DNA of 41,819 nt from IMG/VR virus record IMGVR_UViG_2721755721_000002. One strand, 5' to 3'. Positions 175 through 34,711 of the stretch are shown one piece after another. This DNA is from a virus (Duplodnaviria > Heunggongvirae > Uroviricota > Caudoviricetes). A program made the translations under genes and the position numbers. The notes beneath the pieces are model-generated. The model searched no databases. It saw only the letters and a program-made list of their open reading frames with translations, and had not been told where the DNA came from. How positions within the stretch are numbered: the first letter of the stretch is position 1; the number at the start of each line of letters is the position of its first letter.

Positions 175-227
175 GGGCGGCAGAGCAGTCACGGAGTAAA
201 ACTGATACCGCCAAACGTCACCAGAAA
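175..227 (-). ncRNA. dicF: DicF small regulatory RNA (53 nt), followed on the minus strand by a T-run
   Basis: Reverse complement of 175-227 reads TTTCTGGTGACGTTTGGCGGTATCAGTTTTACTCCGTGACTGCTCTGCCGCCC, which I recognise from memory as E. coli DicF; it lies downstream of ydfA/B/C-like ORFs as in the Qin dicB operon. Not database-verified. Confidence 0.75.
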
Positions 228-2643: not shown

Positions 2644-3078
2644 GTGAGTATGGCTAACGCCTGGCTCAGATTATGGCATGACATGCCAAATGACCCTAAG
2701 TGGCGAACAATTGCCAGGGTGTCAGGGCAGCCAATTGCAACAGTGATGGCAGTGTATATCCACCTCCTGGTGAGCGCGTCACGAAATGTCACGCGAGGTC
2801 ACATTGATGTCACGACAGAAGATTTGGCAAGTGCGCTCGACGTGACAGAAGAGGTAATTGATTCAATTTTGCAGACGATGCAGGGGCGGGTACTTGATGG
2901 TGATTTAATCACTGGATGGGAAAAACGCCAGGTGCTTAAAGAGGACAACGGCAATATTTCGCAAACCGCAAAATCTCCGGCAGAGCGCAAGAGGGCGCAG
3001 CGTGAGAGGGAAAGAAAGCGGGAACAAAATGGCGATTGTCACGGCGCGTCACGAAATGTCACGCACATGTCACGATGA
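2644..3078 (+). CDS. Replication initiator (O-like / replisome organiser), N-terminal part, ending at an in-frame TGA
   Basis: 144-aa ORF; contains an iteron-like GTCACG cluster; same frame as ORF 3133..3720 with only one stop between them. Confidence 0.5.
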   Translation: MSMANAWLRLWHDMPNDPKWRTIARVSGQPIATVMAVYIHLLVSASRNVTRGHIDVTTEDLASALDVTEEVIDSILQTMQGRVLDGDLITGWEKRQVLKEDNGNISQTAKSPAERKRAQRERERKREQNGDCHGASRNVTHMSR

Positions 3079-3132
3079 GTCACGACAGATAAAGATACAG
3101 ATAGAGATACAGATAAAGAAGATCAAAACACT
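3043..3132. repeat. Candidate origin: four (T)GTCACG iterons at about 10-bp spacing followed by a purine-rich GATA(A/G)AGATACA repeat tract; a related iteron cluster lies at 2773-2819
   Basis: CGTCACGAAATGTCACGC is duplicated at 2776 and 3046; GATAAAGATACAGATAGAGATACAGATAAAGAAGATC follows the second cluster; location inside the replication gene resembles lambda ori inside O. Confidence 0.45.
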
Positions 3133-3720
3133 ATGGTCCATGGCGTAAAAAACGCCACGAACCATGTAGGGGATGTTCAGACCGTCACTCCTGGCCAGCC
3201 CGCAGGCACGACACCGGAAGCCGATTCAGCGTATGCGCTGAAAGCCGATTCGGGCGCTGTGCAGCAGGCGATGACCGCTGGGCCGGAGCAATCACACCAA
3301 CTGCAGCAGCCTGAAGCCGATTCCGCCATTCAGCGGGAAGCCGATCGGGTAGTCCCGGAAAACACCGGGCAGCCTGTGGGACGAGTGGATTATCCGGATG
3401 TGTTCGAACAGGTCTGGCGGGAATACCCGTTACGAGCCGGGGCAAACCCGAAGAAATCCGCTTTCAGTGCCTGGAAGGCCAGATTACGCGAGGGGGTGCC
3501 ACCAGAGGCCATGCTGGATGGTGTAAGGCGTTACACAAGATACCTGGCTGCTACCGGGAAAACGGGAACGGAATTTGTTCAGCGAGCGACGACGTTTTTT
3601 GGACCGGACCGGAATTTTGAAAACCCCTGGTTGCTCCCGGTAAGCGGCACGAACAACCAGCGTTGTGTTAATCATATTTCTGAACCGGACACCGAAATTC
3701 CGCCGGGATTCAGAGGGTAA
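3133..3720 (+). CDS. Replication initiator, C-terminal part (195 aa), in frame with 2644..3078
   Basis: Contains FEQVWREYPLRAGANPKKSAFSAWKARL, a motif I associate with phage/plasmid replication proteins; frame continuity with the upstream ORF. Confidence 0.45.
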   Translation: MVHGVKNATNHVGDVQTVTPGQPAGTTPEADSAYALKADSGAVQQAMTAGPEQSHQLQQPEADSAIQREADRVVPENTGQPVGRVDYPDVFEQVWREYPLRAGANPKKSAFSAWKARLREGVPPEAMLDGVRRYTRYLAATGKTGTEFVQRATTFFGPDRNFENPWLLPVSGTNNQRCVNHISEPDTEIPPGFRG

Positions 3721-7208: not shown

Positions 7209-7485
7209 GTCTTTGTACGACCATGCGGGCCTTATTGTCTTGCTATTGCTCTTATGGTTCGCCTTTCTGATTGATTTCATATTGGCGAGGTGACGGGAGT
7301 TAAGTAGAATGGCTGCGGGTGCTTGAGGCTATCTGTCTCAGGCATGAACACCAAAGGCAGATAGAGAAAAGCCCCAGTTAACATTACGCGTCCTGCAAGA
7401 CGCTTAACATTAATCTGAGGCTCAATCTATGAACGGCAAATCTAGGTTAGCCTCTTACGTGCCGAAAGGCAAGGAGAAGCAGGCT

Positions 7486-7641
7486 ATGAAGCAGCAAAAG
7501 GCGATGTTAATCGTCCTGATCGTCATCTGTTTAACCGTCATAGTGACGGCACTGGTAACGAGGAAAGACCTCTGCGAGGTACGAATCCGAACCGGCCAGA
7601 CGGAGGTCGCTGTCTTCACAGCTTACGAACCTGAGGAGTAA
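7486..7641 (+). CDS. hok: Hok/Gef-family type I toxin (51 aa)
   Basis: MKQQKAMLIVLIVICLTVIVTALVTRKDLCEVRIRTGQTEVAVFTAYEPEE is near-identical to HokD/RelF as I remember it; AAGGAG RBS; the track ORF 7429.. is an in-frame upstream extension. Confidence 0.85.
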   Translation: MKQQKAMLIVLIVICLTVIVTALVTRKDLCEVRIRTGQTEVAVFTAYEPEE

Positions 7642-9144: not shown

Positions 9145-9510
9145 ATGACTGAACGCATAGAATTTGTTTTGCCTTACCCGCCAACGGTGAATACTTACTG
9201 GCGACGTCGTGGCAGCACATATTTTGTATCAAAAGTCGGTGAGCGTTATCGCCGTGATGTGGCACTAATTGTTCGCCAGCAGCGGTTGAAATTAAACCTG
9301 TCCGGAAGGCTGGCAATAAAAATTATTGCAGAGCCACCGGATAAGCGCCGTCGTGACCTGGACAATATCCTGAAGGCACCACTGGATGCACTGACGCATG
9401 CGGGGCTGCTCATAGACGACGAGCAGTTTGATGAAATCAATATTGTGCGCGGTCAGCTTGTTCCTGGTGGGCGGTTGGGGATAAAAATCACAGAACTGGG
9501 GTGCGCATGA
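9145..9510 (+). CDS. rusA: RusA-like Holliday junction resolvase
   Basis: 120 aa; VLPYPPTVNTYW...RRRDLDNILKAPLDALTHAGLLIDD parallels E. coli RusA from memory. Confidence 0.85.
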   Translation: MTERIEFVLPYPPTVNTYWRRRGSTYFVSKVGERYRRDVALIVRQQRLKLNLSGRLAIKIIAEPPDKRRRDLDNILKAPLDALTHAGLLIDDEQFDEINIVRGQLVPGGRLGIKITELGCA

Positions 9511-10196
9511 ATAACCAGTATTTACAGTTTGTGCGTGAGCAGCTCATTATCGCCACCGCTGATTTGAGTGGGGCAACAAAAGGTCAGCTTGAAGCCTGGC
9601 AGGAGAATGCCATGTTCGATACAGGGCGTTACAGGCGTAAAAAAATCCGGTACCGCGATGAAGTGACTGGAAAAATGATAACGCGGGATAATCCCCCAAT
9701 CCCGGGAAAGCAATCGCTGGCGAAGGGGACGTCAATTCCTCTGGTCAGTCCGATTGAGTTTTCGACATCATCGTGGCGGCGGGCTGTTCTGTCTCTTGAA
9801 GAACATCATAAAGCCTGGTTGTTGTGGTGTTACAGCGGGAGTATTTGTTGGGAATATCAGATCGCGATAACACAGTGGGCGTGGAATGAATTTAATACTC
9901 AATCCGGTACCAGAAAAATTGCAGGGAAAACGCAGGAACGCCTGAAAAAATTAATCTGGCTGGCGGCGCAGGCAGTAAAAGCAGAACTTTTTGGTGGGGA
10001 AGGTTATGAATACAAGGAGCTGGCATTACTGGTGGGAGTGACAACTAAAAACTGGTCCAAAACATTTACTCGTCACTGGGTTGCAATGAAACACATTTTT
10101 CACCGACTGGATAGTGAGGCTTTATTGTTTGTAATGAGAACGCGTTCAAAACAAAAGGCGGCATTTTCAAAGCAAAGTGTTGCAAAAGTAGATTGA
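9507..10196 (+). CDS. Late-gene antiterminator Q-like protein
   Basis: 229-aa ORF overlapping the rusA stop (ATGA), directly upstream of a strong terminator and the tRNA/late region; family assignment is by position. Confidence 0.55.
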   Translation: MNNQYLQFVREQLIIATADLSGATKGQLEAWQENAMFDTGRYRRKKIRYRDEVTGKMITRDNPPIPGKQSLAKGTSIPLVSPIEFSTSSWRRAVLSLEEHHKAWLLWCYSGSICWEYQIAITQWAWNEFNTQSGTRKIAGKTQERLKKLIWLAAQAVKAELFGGEGYEYKELALLVGVTTKNWSKTFTRHWVAMKHIFHRLDSEALLFVMRTRSKQKAAFSKQSVAKVD

Positions 10197-10261
10197 AAGG
10201 CATATATTTCATGCAAATCTGATATTTTGCCGATTTTGTACGTGATGGCAAAAGCAAACAA

Positions 10262-10288
10262 AACCCGCCCACAAGCGGGTTTTTTTGT
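10262..10288 (+). terminator. tR'-like rho-independent terminator after Q
   Basis: ACCCGC-CCACAA-GCGGGT hairpin followed by TTTTTTT. Confidence 0.65.
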
Positions 10289-10406
10289 GCCACTTATCTC
10301 GGATAGACATGGTGAATGCGCTGGTGGAGGAAGCAAGGGTAATTTTTAACCAGGTGATTCTTGAATGCTTGCAACATTGATTTCGTAACGTTATTATCCT
10401 GCGCCC

Positions 10407-10482
10407 GGCCCTTTAGCTCAGTGGTGAGAGCGAGCGACTCATAATCGCCAGGCCGCTGGTTCAAATCCAGCAAGGGCCACCA
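10407..10482 (+). tRNA. tRNA with CAU anticodon (Ile2-lysidine or Met type), encoded CCA
   Basis: Cloverleaf by hand: acceptor GGCCCTT/AAGGGCC, D-stem GCTC/GAGC, anticodon loop CTCATAA, T-arm GCTGG-TTCAAAT-CCAGC. Confidence 0.8.
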
Positions 10483-10489
10483 TCACATA

Positions 10490-10566
10490 CCGCCATTAGC
10501 TCATCGGGATAGAACGCCAGCCTTCGAAGCTGGTTTCGCGGGGTTCGAGTCTCCGATGGCGGTCCA
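10490..10566 (+). tRNA. tRNA-Arg (anticodon UCG), encoded CCA
   Basis: Acceptor CCGCCAT/ATGGCGG, anticodon arm CCAGC-CTTCGAA-GCTGG, T-arm CGGGG-TTCGAGT-CTCCG. Confidence 0.7.
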
Positions 10567-10579
10567 TTATCGGTATTCT

Positions 10580-10656
10580 GCGTTTTTAGCTCAGCCGGAC
10601 AGAGCAATTGCCTTCTAAGCAATCGGTCACTGGTTCGAACCCAGTACAACGCACCA
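10580..10656 (+). tRNA. tRNA-Arg (anticodon UCU), encoded CCA
   Basis: Anticodon arm ATTGC-CTTCTAA-GCAAT, T-arm ACTGG-TTCGAAC-CCAGT, D-stem GCTC/GAGC; one acceptor-stem mismatch. Confidence 0.7.
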
Positions 10657-10826
10657 CACTTATTTTCCCTCGCTCGCTTTTGCGGACCTTTTTTGTATCC
10701 GCACCACGCCCGGCGCATACCAACCACAGAGCCTTTCGGGGGGAGCTTATGGAGTGGTCAGTGTGACTTTCTCTGTGGGCAGATCGCTCCCGGGCGTTGG
10801 CTCACCCACCCAAAGGAACGTCACGA

Positions 10827-11258
10827 TGTTTGGTATTTTTGGTAAAAAAAGCCCGCAGAGCGGCAACGGAAATTAGAAAGTTTGAAAAACGCGATCTGGC
10901 ACAGGTGGTGATTAACGCCGCATACCTGGTGGCCTGTGCAGATGGTGAATGTGAGGCTTCCTAGAAAGCGAAGATCGAACAGGTACTGCGTAATCAGCCT
11001 GCGCTGTACGCGTTTACGTCAGAAATTAATGCGATTAGCGCAACCATTATCGGTCAGCTGGATACGAACTTTAAAACTGGTCGTCGTGCGGCGTTACGTG
11101 AGATCGAGGATGTGAAACACGATACGCGTGAAGCGGAAGATGTGCTGGATGTGGCGGTGGCCATTGCGGAGGCAGACGGCGAAATTGAGCCGGAAGAGCG
11201 CAAGGTGCTGGAAGAGATTGCCGGTGTTCTGGGTCTTCGTCTGGAGAATTACCTGTGA
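10827..11258 (+). pseudogene. TerB-like (tellurite-resistance family) gene remnant, disrupted by a frameshift and an in-frame TAG
   Basis: Frame 2 gives ...LAQVVINAAYLVACADGECEAS*KAKIEQVLRNQ...AIAEADGEIEPEERKVLEEIAGVLGL; the ATG frame stops after 16 codons near an A7 run; TAG at 10961-10963. Confidence 0.5.
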
Positions 11259-11422
11259 CGGTAAAACTGCGCCTGACTGTGGCTGCACTCCTGCTGTTTC
11301 TGGTGGTGATGGTGGATTTCACCAGCAGAATCATGTCGGTGCTGGCGGATGGGGTGCTGGTCTGCGGCATTATGGTATTGCTGTGGCCGGTGATAAAAAG
11401 AAACAGCCTGCATAATGCTTGA
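11255..11422 (+). CDS. Hypothetical small membrane protein (55 aa, GTG start overlapping the TerB-like stop)
   Basis: VTVKLRLTVAALLLFLVVMV...GVLVCGIMVLLWPVIKRN; hydrophobic; GTGA overlap suggests coupling. Confidence 0.3.
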   Translation: MTVKLRLTVAALLLFLVVMVDFTSRIMSVLADGVLVCGIMVLLWPVIKRNSLHNA

Positions 11423-11623
11423 TTTTTTTGTTTGCTGTTTATTAAAAACACTTCTGCATGGTGAATCCCCCTGTGCGGTGGGGCAATCAGCAAGAAGGAA
11501 TATGGGGTAATCGCGGATTCAGGTGCTGATACTGAATTCACCGGGAGGCACCCGGCACCATGCTTTGCCACAAAAGTGTTATTTCTGTTTTTCTCAAACT
11601 ATCATCGTTATCCCTTTATTTTC

Positions 11624-11650
11624 GGCTGCGCATGGCGCGGCCTTTTTTTT
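11624..11650 (+). terminator. Rho-independent terminator upstream of the esterase gene
   Basis: GGCTGCGC-ATG-GCGCGGCC hairpin followed by T8. Confidence 0.5.
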
Positions 11651-11736
11651 ACGACCAGCCACTGGCAGATGGTCATCCTGTGATTTGATTCCGCTTCCGG
11701 CTTTTTAACTCTGTTCCTCTACACGGGAGAAATTCG

Positions 11737-13587
11737 ATGTCGATTAAACATTATGATGTTGTCAGGGCGGCGTCGCCGTCAGACCTTGCGGAAAAGCTGA
11801 CACACAAACTGAAAGAGGGCTGGCAGCCATACGGCGGACCGGTTGCCATTACGCCGTACACACTGATGCAGGCGGTGGCTATTGAAGGAGAGCCACAGGT
11901 CGGCCCTTCATCTGAGCCGGATTGGTACTACGTCATCGTACTGGCCGGGCAGTCCAATGCCATGGCTTACGGTGAAGGGCTTCCGCTGCCGGATTCATAC
12001 GATGCTCCGGATCCGCGCATTAAACAGCTGGCGCGCCGCAGTACAGTGACGCCGGGCGGGGCTGCCTGCAGATATAACGATATTATTCCGGCTGACCACT
12101 GTCTGCATGATGTGCAGGATATGAGTACGCTGAATCATCCGAGGGCTGACCTGAGCAAAGGGCAGTACGGCTGTGTCGGCCAGGGTTTACATATTGCCAA
12201 AAAACTGCTCCCGTATATCCCGAATAACGCGGGGATCCTGCTGGTACCATGCTGTCGTGGTGGTTCGGCATTTACCCAGGGCGCGGAGGGGACATTCAGC
12301 GAGTCCACGGGGGCCAGTCAGGATTCGGCACGCTGGGGGGTGGGCAAGCCGTTATATCAGGATCTGATTTCCCGCACAAAAGCGGCATTGCAGAAAAATC
12401 CCAAAAACGTTCTGCTGGCCGTCTGCTGGATGCAGGGTGAGTTTGACATGAGCGCCGCCACCCACGCACAGCAACCTGCGCTGTTTACAGCCATGCTGAC
12501 ACAGTTTCGTGCTGACCTCTCCGTGTTTAACGCGCAGTGCCATGGTGGCAGCGCTGCAGATGTGCCGTGGATTTGTGGTGACACGACGTATTACTGGAAA
12601 AATACATACGCTACCCAATACGACACCGTGTACGGCGGGTATAAAAACAGGGAGAGTGAGGGCGTTTATTTTGTGCCCTTCATGACAGACGGTAACGGCG
12701 TCAATACCGCCACTAACGCGCCGGCAGAAGATCCGGATATTCCGGCATCAGGATATTACGGTGCGGCATCGAGAACGAATGGAAACCAGGTATCATCAAA
12801 CCGCCCGACACATTTCAGTTCATGGGCGCGCAGGAGCATTATTCCGGATCGTCTGGCAACCGCTATTCTGAACGCAGCCGGGCGCACCTCAGCCTTCATC
12901 AGTGGTAAGGCACCGGAAATCAAACCCTCGCCCGGCGGCAACACACCATCGGGTCCGTCTGCAGATACGTCCGTTCGCACAATCTCCCTGCTGCCGACAG
13001 CCGGAGAGGCTGCTGCGCAGGGCTGGACCATTAAGGACGGCGGAATTCAGTTGTCGGGTGGTGTATTTAAGATCGCCAAGCAGAGCAATAAAACCTGGTC
13101 CCTGACGCATCCGGTGGATGACGCAATTACCCTGCTGACACAGGGCGGCAGACTGACCTGTAAGTTCCGCCTGTCAGGCGCACTGACCAACAATCAGTTC
13201 GGGCTGGGGATTTATCTGTATACGGATGCTCCCGTTCCTGATGGTGTGGCGATGACGGGTACCGGTAATCCGTTCCTGATGTCGTACTTCACTCAGACCA
13301 CTGACGGCAGAGTGAATCTGATGCATCACAGGAAAGCCGGAAACACGAAGCTGGGGGAGTTCGGCGATTACGGTAACGACTGGCAGACGCTGGAGCTGGT
13401 GTTCACCGCCGGCAGTGCCACGGTTACTCCGAAACTGAATGGAGTGGCTGGCCCGGCATTCCAGGTTATAAAAGACAGTCTGACACTGGGACTGAATGCG
13501 CTGACGCTGACGGATGTTACAAAAAATGCAGCGTATGGCGTTGAGATAGAAAGTCTGGTGCTGGAGATAAATGCACCGGCAGCATAA
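11737..13587 (+). CDS. nanS-p: NanS-p-like prophage sialate O-acetylesterase (DUF1737 N-terminus + SGNH/SASA esterase + C-terminal binding domain)
   Basis: 616 aa; N-terminal MSIKHYDVVRAASPSDLAEKL...; esterase motif VLAGQSNAMAYGEG; located between Q/tRNAs and the holin as in Stx-type phages. Confidence 0.8.
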   Translation: MSIKHYDVVRAASPSDLAEKLTHKLKEGWQPYGGPVAITPYTLMQAVAIEGEPQVGPSSEPDWYYVIVLAGQSNAMAYGEGLPLPDSYDAPDPRIKQLARRSTVTPGGAACRYNDIIPADHCLHDVQDMSTLNHPRADLSKGQYGCVGQGLHIAKKLLPYIPNNAGILLVPCCRGGSAFTQGAEGTFSESTGASQDSARWGVGKPLYQDLISRTKAALQKNPKNVLLAVCWMQGEFDMSAATHAQQPALFTAMLTQFRADLSVFNAQCHGGSAADVPWICGDTTYYWKNTYATQYDTVYGGYKNRESEGVYFVPFMTDGNGVNTATNAPAEDPDIPASGYYGAASRTNGNQVSSNRPTHFSSWARRSIIPDRLATAILNAAGRTSAFISGKAPEIKPSPGGNTPSGPSADTSVRTISLLPTAGEAAAQGWTIKDGGIQLSGGVFKIAKQSNKTWSLTHPVDDAITLLTQGGRLTCKFRLSGALTNNQFGLGIYLYTDAPVPDGVAMTGTGNPFLMSYFTQTTDGRVNLMHHRKAGNTKLGEFGDYGNDWQTLELVFTAGSATVTPKLNGVAGPAFQVIKDSLTLGLNALTLTDVTKNAAYGVEIESLVLEINAPAA

Positions 13588-14034: not shown

Positions 14035-14241
14035 ATGGAAAAAATCACAACGGGTGTGTCATACACCACGTCAGCGGTGGGGACGGGATACTGGTTACTG
14101 CAGCTGCTGGACAAAGTCTCTCCGTCCCAGTGGGTGGCAATCGGTGTGCTGGGGAGTCTGCTGTTTGGCCTGCTGACGTATCTGACTAACCTTTATTTCA
14201 AGATTAAAGAAGATAAGCGTAAGGTGGCGCGGGGAGAGTAG
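14035..14241 (+). CDS. S: Holin, phage 21 S21-like pinholin
   Basis: [68 protein letters not shown] closely parallels S21 from memory. Confidence 0.85.
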
Positions 14242-14928: not shown

Positions 14929-15462
14929 ATGAACGAAAAAATAAAATACGGCCTGTCGGCTGCCGTTCTGGCGCTGATTGGTGCAGGTGCTTCTGCGCCT
15001 GAAATCCTCGACCAGTTTCTGGATGAAAAGGAAGGTAACCACACCACGGCATACCGTGATGGTGCGGGGATCTGGACCATCTGCCGTGGTGCCATTCTGG
15101 TGGATGGTAAGCCTGTTATTCCTGGCATGAAGCTGTCAAAGGAAAAATGCGACCGGGTTAATGCCATCGAACGTGACAAGGCTCTGGCATGGGTGGAGAA
15201 AAACATCCGGGTGCCGCTGACCGAACCCCAGAAAGCGGGGATCGCGTCATTCTGTCCGTACAACATTGGCCCCGGTAAGTGCTTCCCGTCGACGTTTTAT
15301 AAACGAATTAATGCAGGCGATCGAAAAGGTGCCTGTGAGGCGATTCGCTGGTGGATTAAGGACGGTGGCAGAGACTGCCGTATCCGTTCAAATAATTGCT
15401 ACGGTCAGGTCTCACGGCGTGACCAGGAGAGCGCGCTGGCGTGCTGGGACATCGACAGATAG
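14929..15462 (+). CDS. R: SAR endolysin (T4-type lysozyme with N-terminal signal-anchor-release domain)
   Basis: N-terminal Gly/Ala-rich hydrophobic YGLSAAVLALIGAGASA; catalytic E...D...T spacing in EGNHTTAYRDGAGIWTICRG; pairs with a pinholin. Confidence 0.85.
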   Translation: MNEKIKYGLSAAVLALIGAGASAPEILDQFLDEKEGNHTTAYRDGAGIWTICRGAILVDGKPVIPGMKLSKEKCDRVNAIERDKALAWVEKNIRVPLTEPQKAGIASFCPYNIGPGKCFPSTFYKRINAGDRKGACEAIRWWIKDGGRDCRIRSNNCYGQVSRRDQESALACWDIDR

Positions 15463-16730: not shown

Positions 16731-17045
16731 ATGCTACATGATCACGTGGCAGAATGTCTGGAGAAAAAAGGACTGTACCGGAGAGCAGCTGAACGATGGG
16801 CAAAAGTGATGGTACAGCTAAGTGATGACCAGAAAAGAAAAGTGGCGGCACAGAAACGAGCAGAGTGTTTGCGTAAGGCGCGCCGGACTCCGGTTTCACC
16901 GGTGAACCTGACCGAAATAAAACAAGCGGTCAACAGACTACATTCTGAGTTGGGAATGGGATTTGAAGAGCGGCGGGTATTCCGACGATATAAAGGGACA
17001 GGAGAACAGAATACGTCCGGAAACGCGCGGTCAAAAAAATGCTAA
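16731..17045 (+). CDS. pch: PerC/Pch-family transcriptional regulator
   Basis: 104 aa; LEKKGLYRRAAERWAKVM matches the PerC-family signature as I recall it; AT/T-rich upstream region; GGAGG RBS. Confidence 0.6.
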   Translation: MLHDHVAECLEKKGLYRRAAERWAKVMVQLSDDQKRKVAAQKRAECLRKARRTPVSPVNLTEIKQAVNRLHSELGMGFEERRVFRRYKGTGEQNTSGNARSKKC

Positions 17046-34183: not shown

Positions 34184-34711
34184 TTATTGAATGATGCCGC
34201 AGGCCATTCTCGCACCACCACCGCCCAGGGGCTCCGGATGGTCATGATGGTTATCACCGCCAGCATGAAGCATGAGAGAACGCCCTTTAATCTCTTTTAA
34301 TGAGTTCAGTCTCGGGGCCAGGACCGGGTAGTTCGCTTTTCCGTCATGCGTCACGAACAGCGCAGGGAGGTCGCCCAGGTGTCCATCCGGAGACCAGGGG
34401 CCAAGATGTTTGCCGGTGTTTTTCGGGTCAAAGTGACCGCCAGCCGATAATGCTGCGACCGGTTTTCCGTCTTTCAGTGCCGGGGCGCAATTTCCTTTTT
34501 CGTGCACATGAAAACCATGAATGCCTTCAGACAGAGAGTGAAGGGCTGGTGTGAACAGCAGACCGTAGGGGGTCTCCTGAATGGTTATTTTTCCAATGCT
34601 GACTTCTTTTCCGTCAGCACTGACAAGGTTCATTGGGACTTCCTGTTCTGCTGCGTATCCGCATGATGCTGCTGTCAGCATGGCAATGGCAGCAATGATT
34701 TTACATTTCAT
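34184..34711 (-). CDS. sodC: Periplasmic Cu,Zn superoxide dismutase (SodC), prophage moron
   Basis: [20 protein letters not shown] signal peptide; [29 protein letters not shown] are Cu,Zn-SOD signatures. The track ORF runs on to 35218 antisense to J; the real start is the internal ATG. Confidence 0.85.

Follow-up and report, generated by a model that had tools for sequence, protein, structure and literature searches.

This locus raises the question of what a lambdoid phage carries at the place where Shiga toxin (Stx)-converting phages carry their toxin genes, stxA and stxB, and whether a phage with another gene in that place should be seen as an Stx phage without its toxin. The locus lies in IMG/VR record IMGVR_UViG_2721755721_000002, a stretch of 41,819 nucleotides (nt) of tailed-phage DNA that was analysed as a whole and is called the window below. 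Here the gene for the late antiterminator Q is followed by an intrinsic terminator, three tRNA genes, a pseudogene of the TerB family (tciA) with its conserved leader, the small gene tciB, a nanS-p type sialate O-acetylesterase gene and the lysis genes, all of them on the plus strand, as are the other features described from Q to the lysis genes. A preliminary description made from the sequence had listed Q, the terminator, three tRNAs, a TerB-like gene, the esterase and the lysis genes, and every one of them was found where it had been placed. This part of the window very probably controls the late operon of a lambdoid prophage of E. coli that is mosaic and free of stx. The order of Q, terminator, tRNAs, cargo, nanS-p, holin and endolysin on one strand is the late architecture of Stx phages, and it is the order of the window. 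No homology to Stx was detected when the A and B subunits of both Stx1 and Stx2 were compared by tblastn with all six frames of the whole window (best E 0.34), in agreement with the earlier statement that no stxA- or stxB-like open reading frame is present.

A close parallel in layout is provided by 933W, an Stx2a phage (GenBank AF125520), which is annotated in the order Q, pR', qut, two terminators, pT, ileZ, argN, argO, terminator, stx2A, stx2B, L0105 (nanS-p), S and R. The earlier comparison of the locus with the surroundings of stxAB is thus well founded, as 933W has the same order, with stx2AB lying between the same tRNAs and the STnc100 element and nanS-p. Gene order, strand, the three tRNAs, the hexamers of the putative tRNA promoter pT, the terminator that follows the tRNAs, STnc100, the domains of nanS-p, and the P21-type holin with its lysozyme are common to both. 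The alignment of the two sequences begins at pT, takes in the tRNAs and the post-tRNA terminator, and breaks off at about position 10705, where they diverge; Stx2 phages in general match only positions 10657-10705 within the segment between the tRNAs and tciA, and high nucleotide identity returns from the start of nanS-p. In contrast, 933W carries stx2AB as cargo instead of tciA-tciB, its Q belongs to the Q21 family (PF06530) and that of the window to the Q82 family (PF06323), and the pR' segments do not align. The virion module of the window is lambda/21-like and long-tailed, unlike that of 933W. These alignments place the left edge of the slot at the post-tRNA terminator and its right edge at STnc100 and nanS-p; Stx phages have stxAB inside it, and the window has leader, tciA and tciB. 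The region is a clear example of a cargo slot, located between the late terminator with its tRNA cluster and nanS-p, that can accommodate Shiga toxin genes in one phage and a cassette of the TerB type in another. The arrangement itself is already known and very common, its counterparts being annotated in RefSeq across hundreds of E. coli genomes, and the Stx-phage counterpart of the module was described with the 933W genome.

The gene in the slot, tciA (10826..11258), belongs to the TerB family, with PF05099 matching the C-terminal part at E=9.1e-8, and is labelled as a pseudogene with an 'internal stop' by the NCBI Prokaryotic Genome Annotation Pipeline (PGAP), which makes identical calls in unrelated strains. 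Its intact homologue matches phrog_632 and is recognized over nearly the full length by PF05099 (E=2.9e-16) and PDB entry 2JXU (E=3e-7), and is thereby alike in domain to the tellurite-resistance protein TerB of K. pneumoniae (PDB 2JXU) and to TciA of phage P1. Unlike a member of the terZABCDE operon, the tciA of the window is a stand-alone phage moron, and it is cut at codon 46. Alignment with the intact allele of phage JLK-2012 shows a run of seven A residues (A7, 10844-10850) in the window instead of six, and TAG (10962-10964) in place of GAG. The A7 run puts the ATG at 10826 out of frame, and an alternative TTG start is available at 10830. Two E. coli alleles of 142 amino acids (aa) that PGAP considers intact, WP_001303558.1 and WP_106912615.1, have the same A7 and start at the TTG equivalent to position 10830; against one of them, the tciA of the window has 3 mismatches in 463 nt, among them the G-to-T change that creates the amber codon. 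Because these intact alleles share A7, the change from GAG to TAG at 10962 is the sole clear disabling lesion. In the reference frame of 143 codons the amber takes the place of codon 46, and most of the TerB domain is encoded beyond it. The preliminary description had ascribed the breakage to a frameshift near the A7 run and an in-frame TAG; both features are real, but the A7 run is no separate lesion. Likewise, its TerB-like remnant does belong to the TerB family but is no fragment: judged from comparison with its alleles, tciA is a young, full-length pseudogene inactivated by a single nonsense mutation.

The second gene of the cassette, tciB (11255..11422), is intact and encodes a DUF3927 protein of 55 aa (WP_000216649.1; PF13064, E=1.7e-16; phrog_1470). 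Its GTG start overlaps the stop codon of tciA (GTGA), and any translational coupling between the two would probably lower the expression of tciB through the premature stop in tciA. TciA, TciB and NanS-p gave no meaningful match as a defence system in PADLOC or NCBIfam.

Among the alternatives, the one that survives best is that tciA is not dead and is kept by selection, through read-through of the TAG, a re-initiated C-terminal fragment, or slippage at the A7 run. In a collection of 5,426 genomes, the 56-mer that bears the TAG was found exactly in 537 records as against 98 matching records without the TAG, often in several prophages per genome, the frame beyond the TAG is still open to the normal stop, and phrog_3920 is a PHROG family of 48-aa C-terminal open reading frames. 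However, an open downstream frame is expected of a young lesion in a gene only 3 of 463 nt from intact alleles, and the abundance of the TAG allele is explained by over-sampling of clonal O157:H7 and by recombination between prophages; the allele is indeed widespread, largely by way of O157:H7 and related lineages. No suppressor tRNA was found in the window by ARAGORN, and the first canonical in-frame start past the TAG (GTG at 11112) would yield only 48 aa, without most of the TerB domain. Phase variation at the A run was considered and rejected, as a 64-mer spanning A7 was matched exactly by 556 records of the same collection, so that the length of the run is uniform among near-identical copies, and length variants occur in diverged alleles only. 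Continued function of tciA is, on this evidence, very unlikely, and inactivation by the nonsense mutation is the preferred reading.

The comparison with 933W invites another explanation of the cassette, namely that the window derives from a former Stx phage that has lost stxAB, the TerB gene being debris in the emptied slot. Its flanks are indeed common with Stx phages: the tRNA cluster and the terminator behind it lie to the left of the slot, and to the right STnc100 is followed by nanS-p. Nevertheless, no Stx-like coding remnant is left in any frame, as given by the tblastn comparison above, and the slot is filled by a complete leader-tciA-tciB cassette that many non-Stx phages also possess, among them Klebsiella phages and prophages of Pantoea and Franconibacter. 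In the non-Stx phages JLK-2012 and PPyecE_EH1910, the block from the leader through tciA, tciB and STnc100 to nanS-p is 93-94% identical to the window; JLK-2012 differs from it in an intact tciA with A6 and in a Q of the Q21 family. The tciA cassette follows directly after Q, or after Q and tRNAs, in JLK-2012, Evi and two Klebsiella phages, and a search with the TciA protein detected it in genomes of Pantoea, Pseudescherichia and Franconibacter as well. Other modules of the window are also closest to non-Stx phages: the early and Q module to vB_EcoS-689R5, Evi and the PPompW prophages (about 93%), and the virion genes to PhiR12-type phages (93%), followed by phages 21 and lambda (85-86%). It is thus highly improbable that the TerB gene is what remains of a lost toxin locus; tciA-tciB is a normal and widespread occupant of the slot. 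For the same reasons the description of the window as an stx-negative relative of Stx phages needs to be narrowed. It is stx-free and its late region does align, but in the sequence comparisons the kinship with Stx phages holds only for each module separately, and its nearest relatives are non-Stx prophages.

Expression of the slot and of the genes beyond it is likely to depend on Q. The Q gene (9507..10196, with the start chosen by PGAP) encodes a protein of the Q82 family (PF06323, E=9.5e-93; phrog_304), and DNA that is 100% identical is labelled 'bacteriophage antitermination protein Q' by PGAP. PF06323 is the Q82 family, and the three families of Q are unrelated in sequence (PMC9388147); the Q of the window belongs to one of these three. 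A candidate late promoter pR' (TTGCAA-17-TATATT, 10180..10208) was found over the stop codon of Q by a consensus scan, as was GATATT at 10221-10226, a sequence resembling a -10 element that is a candidate sigma-dependent pause element. The pR' segment is invariant in PPompW and in one O157:H7 prophage. It is followed by a tR'-like intrinsic terminator (CCCGC...GCGGG and then U7, 10257..10286), an inverted repeat (I2) with 92% complementarity and 12-nt arms, sixty nt past the end of Q and about 70 nt past the predicted start site; the 84-nt fold at this place has a free energy of -25 kcal/mol (z=-2.6). Rfam matches of the transcript from pR' to tR' to isrJ/isrK and to leader peptides were weak (E 0.07-0.46) and were taken as chance. 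In the Q family, in a promoter-like site at most 70 nt further on and in the strong terminator after it, the window resembles late antitermination of the phage 82 type. This likeness is one of Q family and layout. If the locus works as those of phages 82, lambda and 933W do, which the architecture and the homologies suggest, RNA polymerase would start constitutively at pR' (about 10215) and release a transcript of about 70 nt on halting at tR' (10257-10286). Once the prophage is induced, Q, of the Q82 family, would be loaded onto the polymerase at pR', and the modified polymerase would pass tR' and also the terminators at 10672-10694 and 11624-11651. Such read-through would yield transcripts of the tRNAs, tciA/tciB, nanS-p, and the lysis and virion genes.

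The tRNA genes are exactly three in the whole window according to ARAGORN, and all three lie within the interval between Q and tciA. They comprise tRNA-Ile2 with the anticodon CAU (ileZ type, 10407..10482; Rfam 72.5 bits; tRNA-Ile in PGAP), tRNA-Arg with UCG (argN type, 10490..10566; 44.4 bits; aligned to argN of 933W) and tRNA-Arg with UCU, which reads AGA/AGG (argO type, 10580..10656; 63.3 bits; aligned to argO of 933W). The CAU, UCG and UCU tRNAs of the preliminary description are accordingly upheld by ARAGORN, by Rfam scores above the gathering score for tRNA, which is 29 bits, and by PGAP, which calls the same trio (Ile, Arg, Arg) in near-identical genomes. The CAU tRNA is identical to ileZ of 933W at 75 of 76 positions and to K-12 ileX at 67 of 76, and because of this identity it is predicted to be an AUA-reading Ile2 tRNA after lysidine modification, and not a methionine tRNA. 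A candidate promoter for the cluster, pT (TTGCAA-17-TATTAT, 10369..10397), was found by consensus scan and aligns with the feature annotated in 933W as 'pT; putative tRNA promoter', both hexamers being conserved between the two. On the other side, the post-tRNA terminator (10672..10694) aligns with the 'possible rho-independent terminator upstream of the stx genes' of 933W; the copy in the window has a 3' arm weakened by a G-to-A change and folds weakly, and it is the last block common with Stx phages before the cargo. Over about 250 nt the cluster differs from that of 933W by 14 substitutions and one 2-nt indel (about 94% identity).

These features bear on whether the three tRNA genes could be inert relics, such as leftovers of recombination or of an attachment site. 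In favour of this, the argN-type tRNA is the lowest-scoring of the three, at 44.4 bits. It nonetheless exceeds the gathering score, as do the others, and all three form a cloverleaf in ARAGORN. The Ile2 tRNA gene encodes its CCA end, and where it departs from K-12 ileX at positions 6 and 67 the two differences form a compensatory pair in the acceptor stem. The flanking of the cluster by a conserved sigma-70-type promoter on the 5' side and by a terminator on the 3' side, together with its identity to 933W, also speaks against decay, and the relic explanation is scarcely credible. In JLK-2012 (2754-2987), another tRNA trio (Asn, Thr, Gly) is located at the same spot, upstream of the same terminator-leader-tciA block, and the tRNA cluster itself is therefore an exchangeable cassette.

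If functional, pT, being of the sigma-70 type, would let a lysogen make the three tRNAs, which would decode AUA, CGA/CGG and AGA/AGG, codons that are rare in E. coli and clustered in accessory genes of the prophage, for instance nleB2. Codons were counted in the 45 coding sequences of the window that map cleanly to PGAP annotation (10,897 codons), and ATA was found 6.9 times, AGA 5.7, AGG 5.0 and CGA 4.8 times per 1000. In E. coli the averages per 1000 are about 4 for AUA, about 2 for AGA, about 1 for AGG and about 3.5 for CGA. As the frequencies in the window exceed these averages, there is a modest overall enrichment of rare codons. Its distribution between genes is uneven. The four codons ATA, AGA, AGG and CGA together amount to 108 per 1000 in a YlcI/YnfO-like gene, 78 in hokD, 77 in a PerC-family gene and 74 in nleB2, in contrast with 8 in the large terminase gene, 4 in the L gene and 3 in the major capsid gene. 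The nleB2 gene (40839-41819), which encodes a type III effector arginine glycosyltransferase and ends exactly at the edge of the window, has 24 such codons among 326, and tops the long genes in density of phage-tRNA codons. An enrichment in late and moron genes, which had been proposed as a check, is thus observed in the morons and not in the core late genes, and it is the accessory and virulence genes, nleB2 for one, whose codon bias the phage tRNAs match, not the virion genes. Some of these points weigh against the reading of the locus as a working late control region with useful tRNAs: the promoters and the pause element are consensus matches only, the host codon averages that serve as the baseline are approximate, and the core late structural genes have no enrichment of rare codons, so that the tRNAs are not obviously required for making virions.

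The locus recurs with little change in many genomes. Two RefSeq chromosomes contain the 771-bp stretch of tciA-tciB at 100% identity, and many others contain it at 99.9%, with the same PGAP features; it is present at 3,123 places in 807 of the 5,426 complete E. coli genomes of the collection. The block from the leader to nanS-p is 99.9-100% identical in prophages of O157:H7, of O157:H16 and of bovine, porcine and panda isolates. Homopolymer runs are prone to error on some platforms, yet faulty sequencing or assembly as the source of the TAG and of the extra A has a practically negligible probability, given that the same 771 bp recur at 99.9-100% in many complete assemblies made independently, by different laboratories and from different hosts, and that each of the oligomers bearing the two lesions is matched exactly in more than 530 records. 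The whole window can be aligned at 96-99% with a prophage of strain Z1322HEC0003, which has lambda-like head and tail genes further on, and the effectors nleB2, nleC, nleH and nleF.

The only modestly novel lead in the region is the leader of tciA, a conserved 5' untranslated region of about 125 nt (10700..10825) that extends from behind the post-tRNA terminator to the start of tciA, and is a candidate regulatory leader. It holds two nested perfect 8-bp inverted repeats, and RNAalifold predicts an outer helix (10701-10713/10790-10803) and an inner helix (10724-10731/10771-10778). In an alternative fold, favoured by a smaller alignment, CCTTT (10732-10736) would pair with the Shine-Dalgarno sequence AAAGG (10812-10816). 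The comparative set comprised 63 distinct copies, taken from phages and prophages across several genera of Enterobacterales. The leader was 81-86% identical to that of JLK-2012 at loci where the identity of the TerB coding sequence fell to 57-62% for nucleotides and to 41-44% for protein, and unrelated upstream DNA gave 55-68% under the same alignment scheme. At one locus, a leader of the E. coli type (98%) is joined to a divergent TerB allele, so the leader is exchanged as a unit, recombining onto either TerB allele. Its poly-G run varies in length from 1 to 12, and an intrinsic terminator is always located directly 5' of it. Under the model, 99% of the cells are paired, and one pair changes from C-G to U-A in 26 of the 63 sequences. 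The inner helix was, however, fixed by the first search pattern; a second scan without this constraint added only one new variant in that helix, an A-to-G change that keeps a G-U pair. Covariation in the leader is not decisive, as an all-against-all column scan produced many spurious canonical covariations stemming from about four lineages. The minimum free energy of the single sequence (z=+0.79) is not significant, and the evidence for a structured RNA as a whole is likewise not decisive. No Rfam family matched the leader, and no promoter within it was found by consensus scan.

It is possible, if rather doubtful, that the leader is a structured cis-regulatory RNA and gates how accessory genes of the TerB family, placed immediately behind the late terminator, are translated. 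The proposed regulatory leader may span lambdoid phages of Escherichia, Klebsiella, Pantoea, Pseudescherichia and Franconibacter, with two mutually exclusive folds predicted. If it is indeed a regulatory RNA, the tciA leader would be a new cis element in the control of phage morons. In PPompW prophages, the leader is the site of an insertion: ISEc20, of the IS110 family, lies inside it, and homology to the window ends at the equivalent of about 10743 (PPompW_132418). The terminase genes are the next to be annotated after ISEc20 in these prophages, tciA-tciB and the lysis genes being absent.

Downstream of the cassette is an STnc100-like RNA element (11427..11599), which scores 100.8 bits with RF02076, as compared with a gathering score of 47. 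It lacks the 3' stem of the model itself, and a separate intrinsic terminator is located at 11624-11651. In 933W and in an Stx1a phage, a member of the STnc100 family is found directly after stxB, where AsxR or AgvB adjoins it on the opposite strand; neither of these anti-sRNAs was found in the window, even at E<=1. TerB, RusA and STnc100 have been reported as typical neighbours of prophage small RNAs (sRNAs) in enteropathogenic and enterohaemorrhagic E. coli (2026 preprint). The nanS-p type gene (11737..13587) encodes a predicted sialate O-acetylesterase of 616 aa with the domains DUF1737, SASA and DUF6645. This set, consisting of DUF1737, SASA and a C-terminal lectin-like domain, and the place of the gene just before the lysis cassette point to a NanS-p. 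The gene is 99% identical to its counterpart in phage 434 and about 96% identical to those of Stx1a phages, and nanS-p is known from Stx and non-Stx prophages alike (PMC8065619, PMC10462455). The lysis cassette includes a P21-type holin (14035..14241; PF04971) and a lysozyme (14929..15462; PF00959), both also called by PGAP. Between the lysis and terminase genes lies a gene for a transcriptional regulator of the PerC family (16731-17045), which may be a virulence regulator carried as cargo.

Several features elsewhere in the window may also be recorded. An insertion of 766 bp relative to the closest genome (33323-34088), containing open reading frames similar to InsA and InsB of IS1, has tail gene I on one side and, on the other, sodC (34184-34711, minus strand), which encodes a Cu/Zn superoxide dismutase. 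A second pseudogene is found in the early region at 2650-3720, where two in-frame stops interrupt an open reading frame that is intact in the closest genome (356 aa, hypothetical). The early region is also Qin-like, because it contains both the DicF sRNA (175-226, minus strand, 76.7 bits) and a sok/hokD type I toxin-antitoxin locus (7317-7641; sok, 110 bits).

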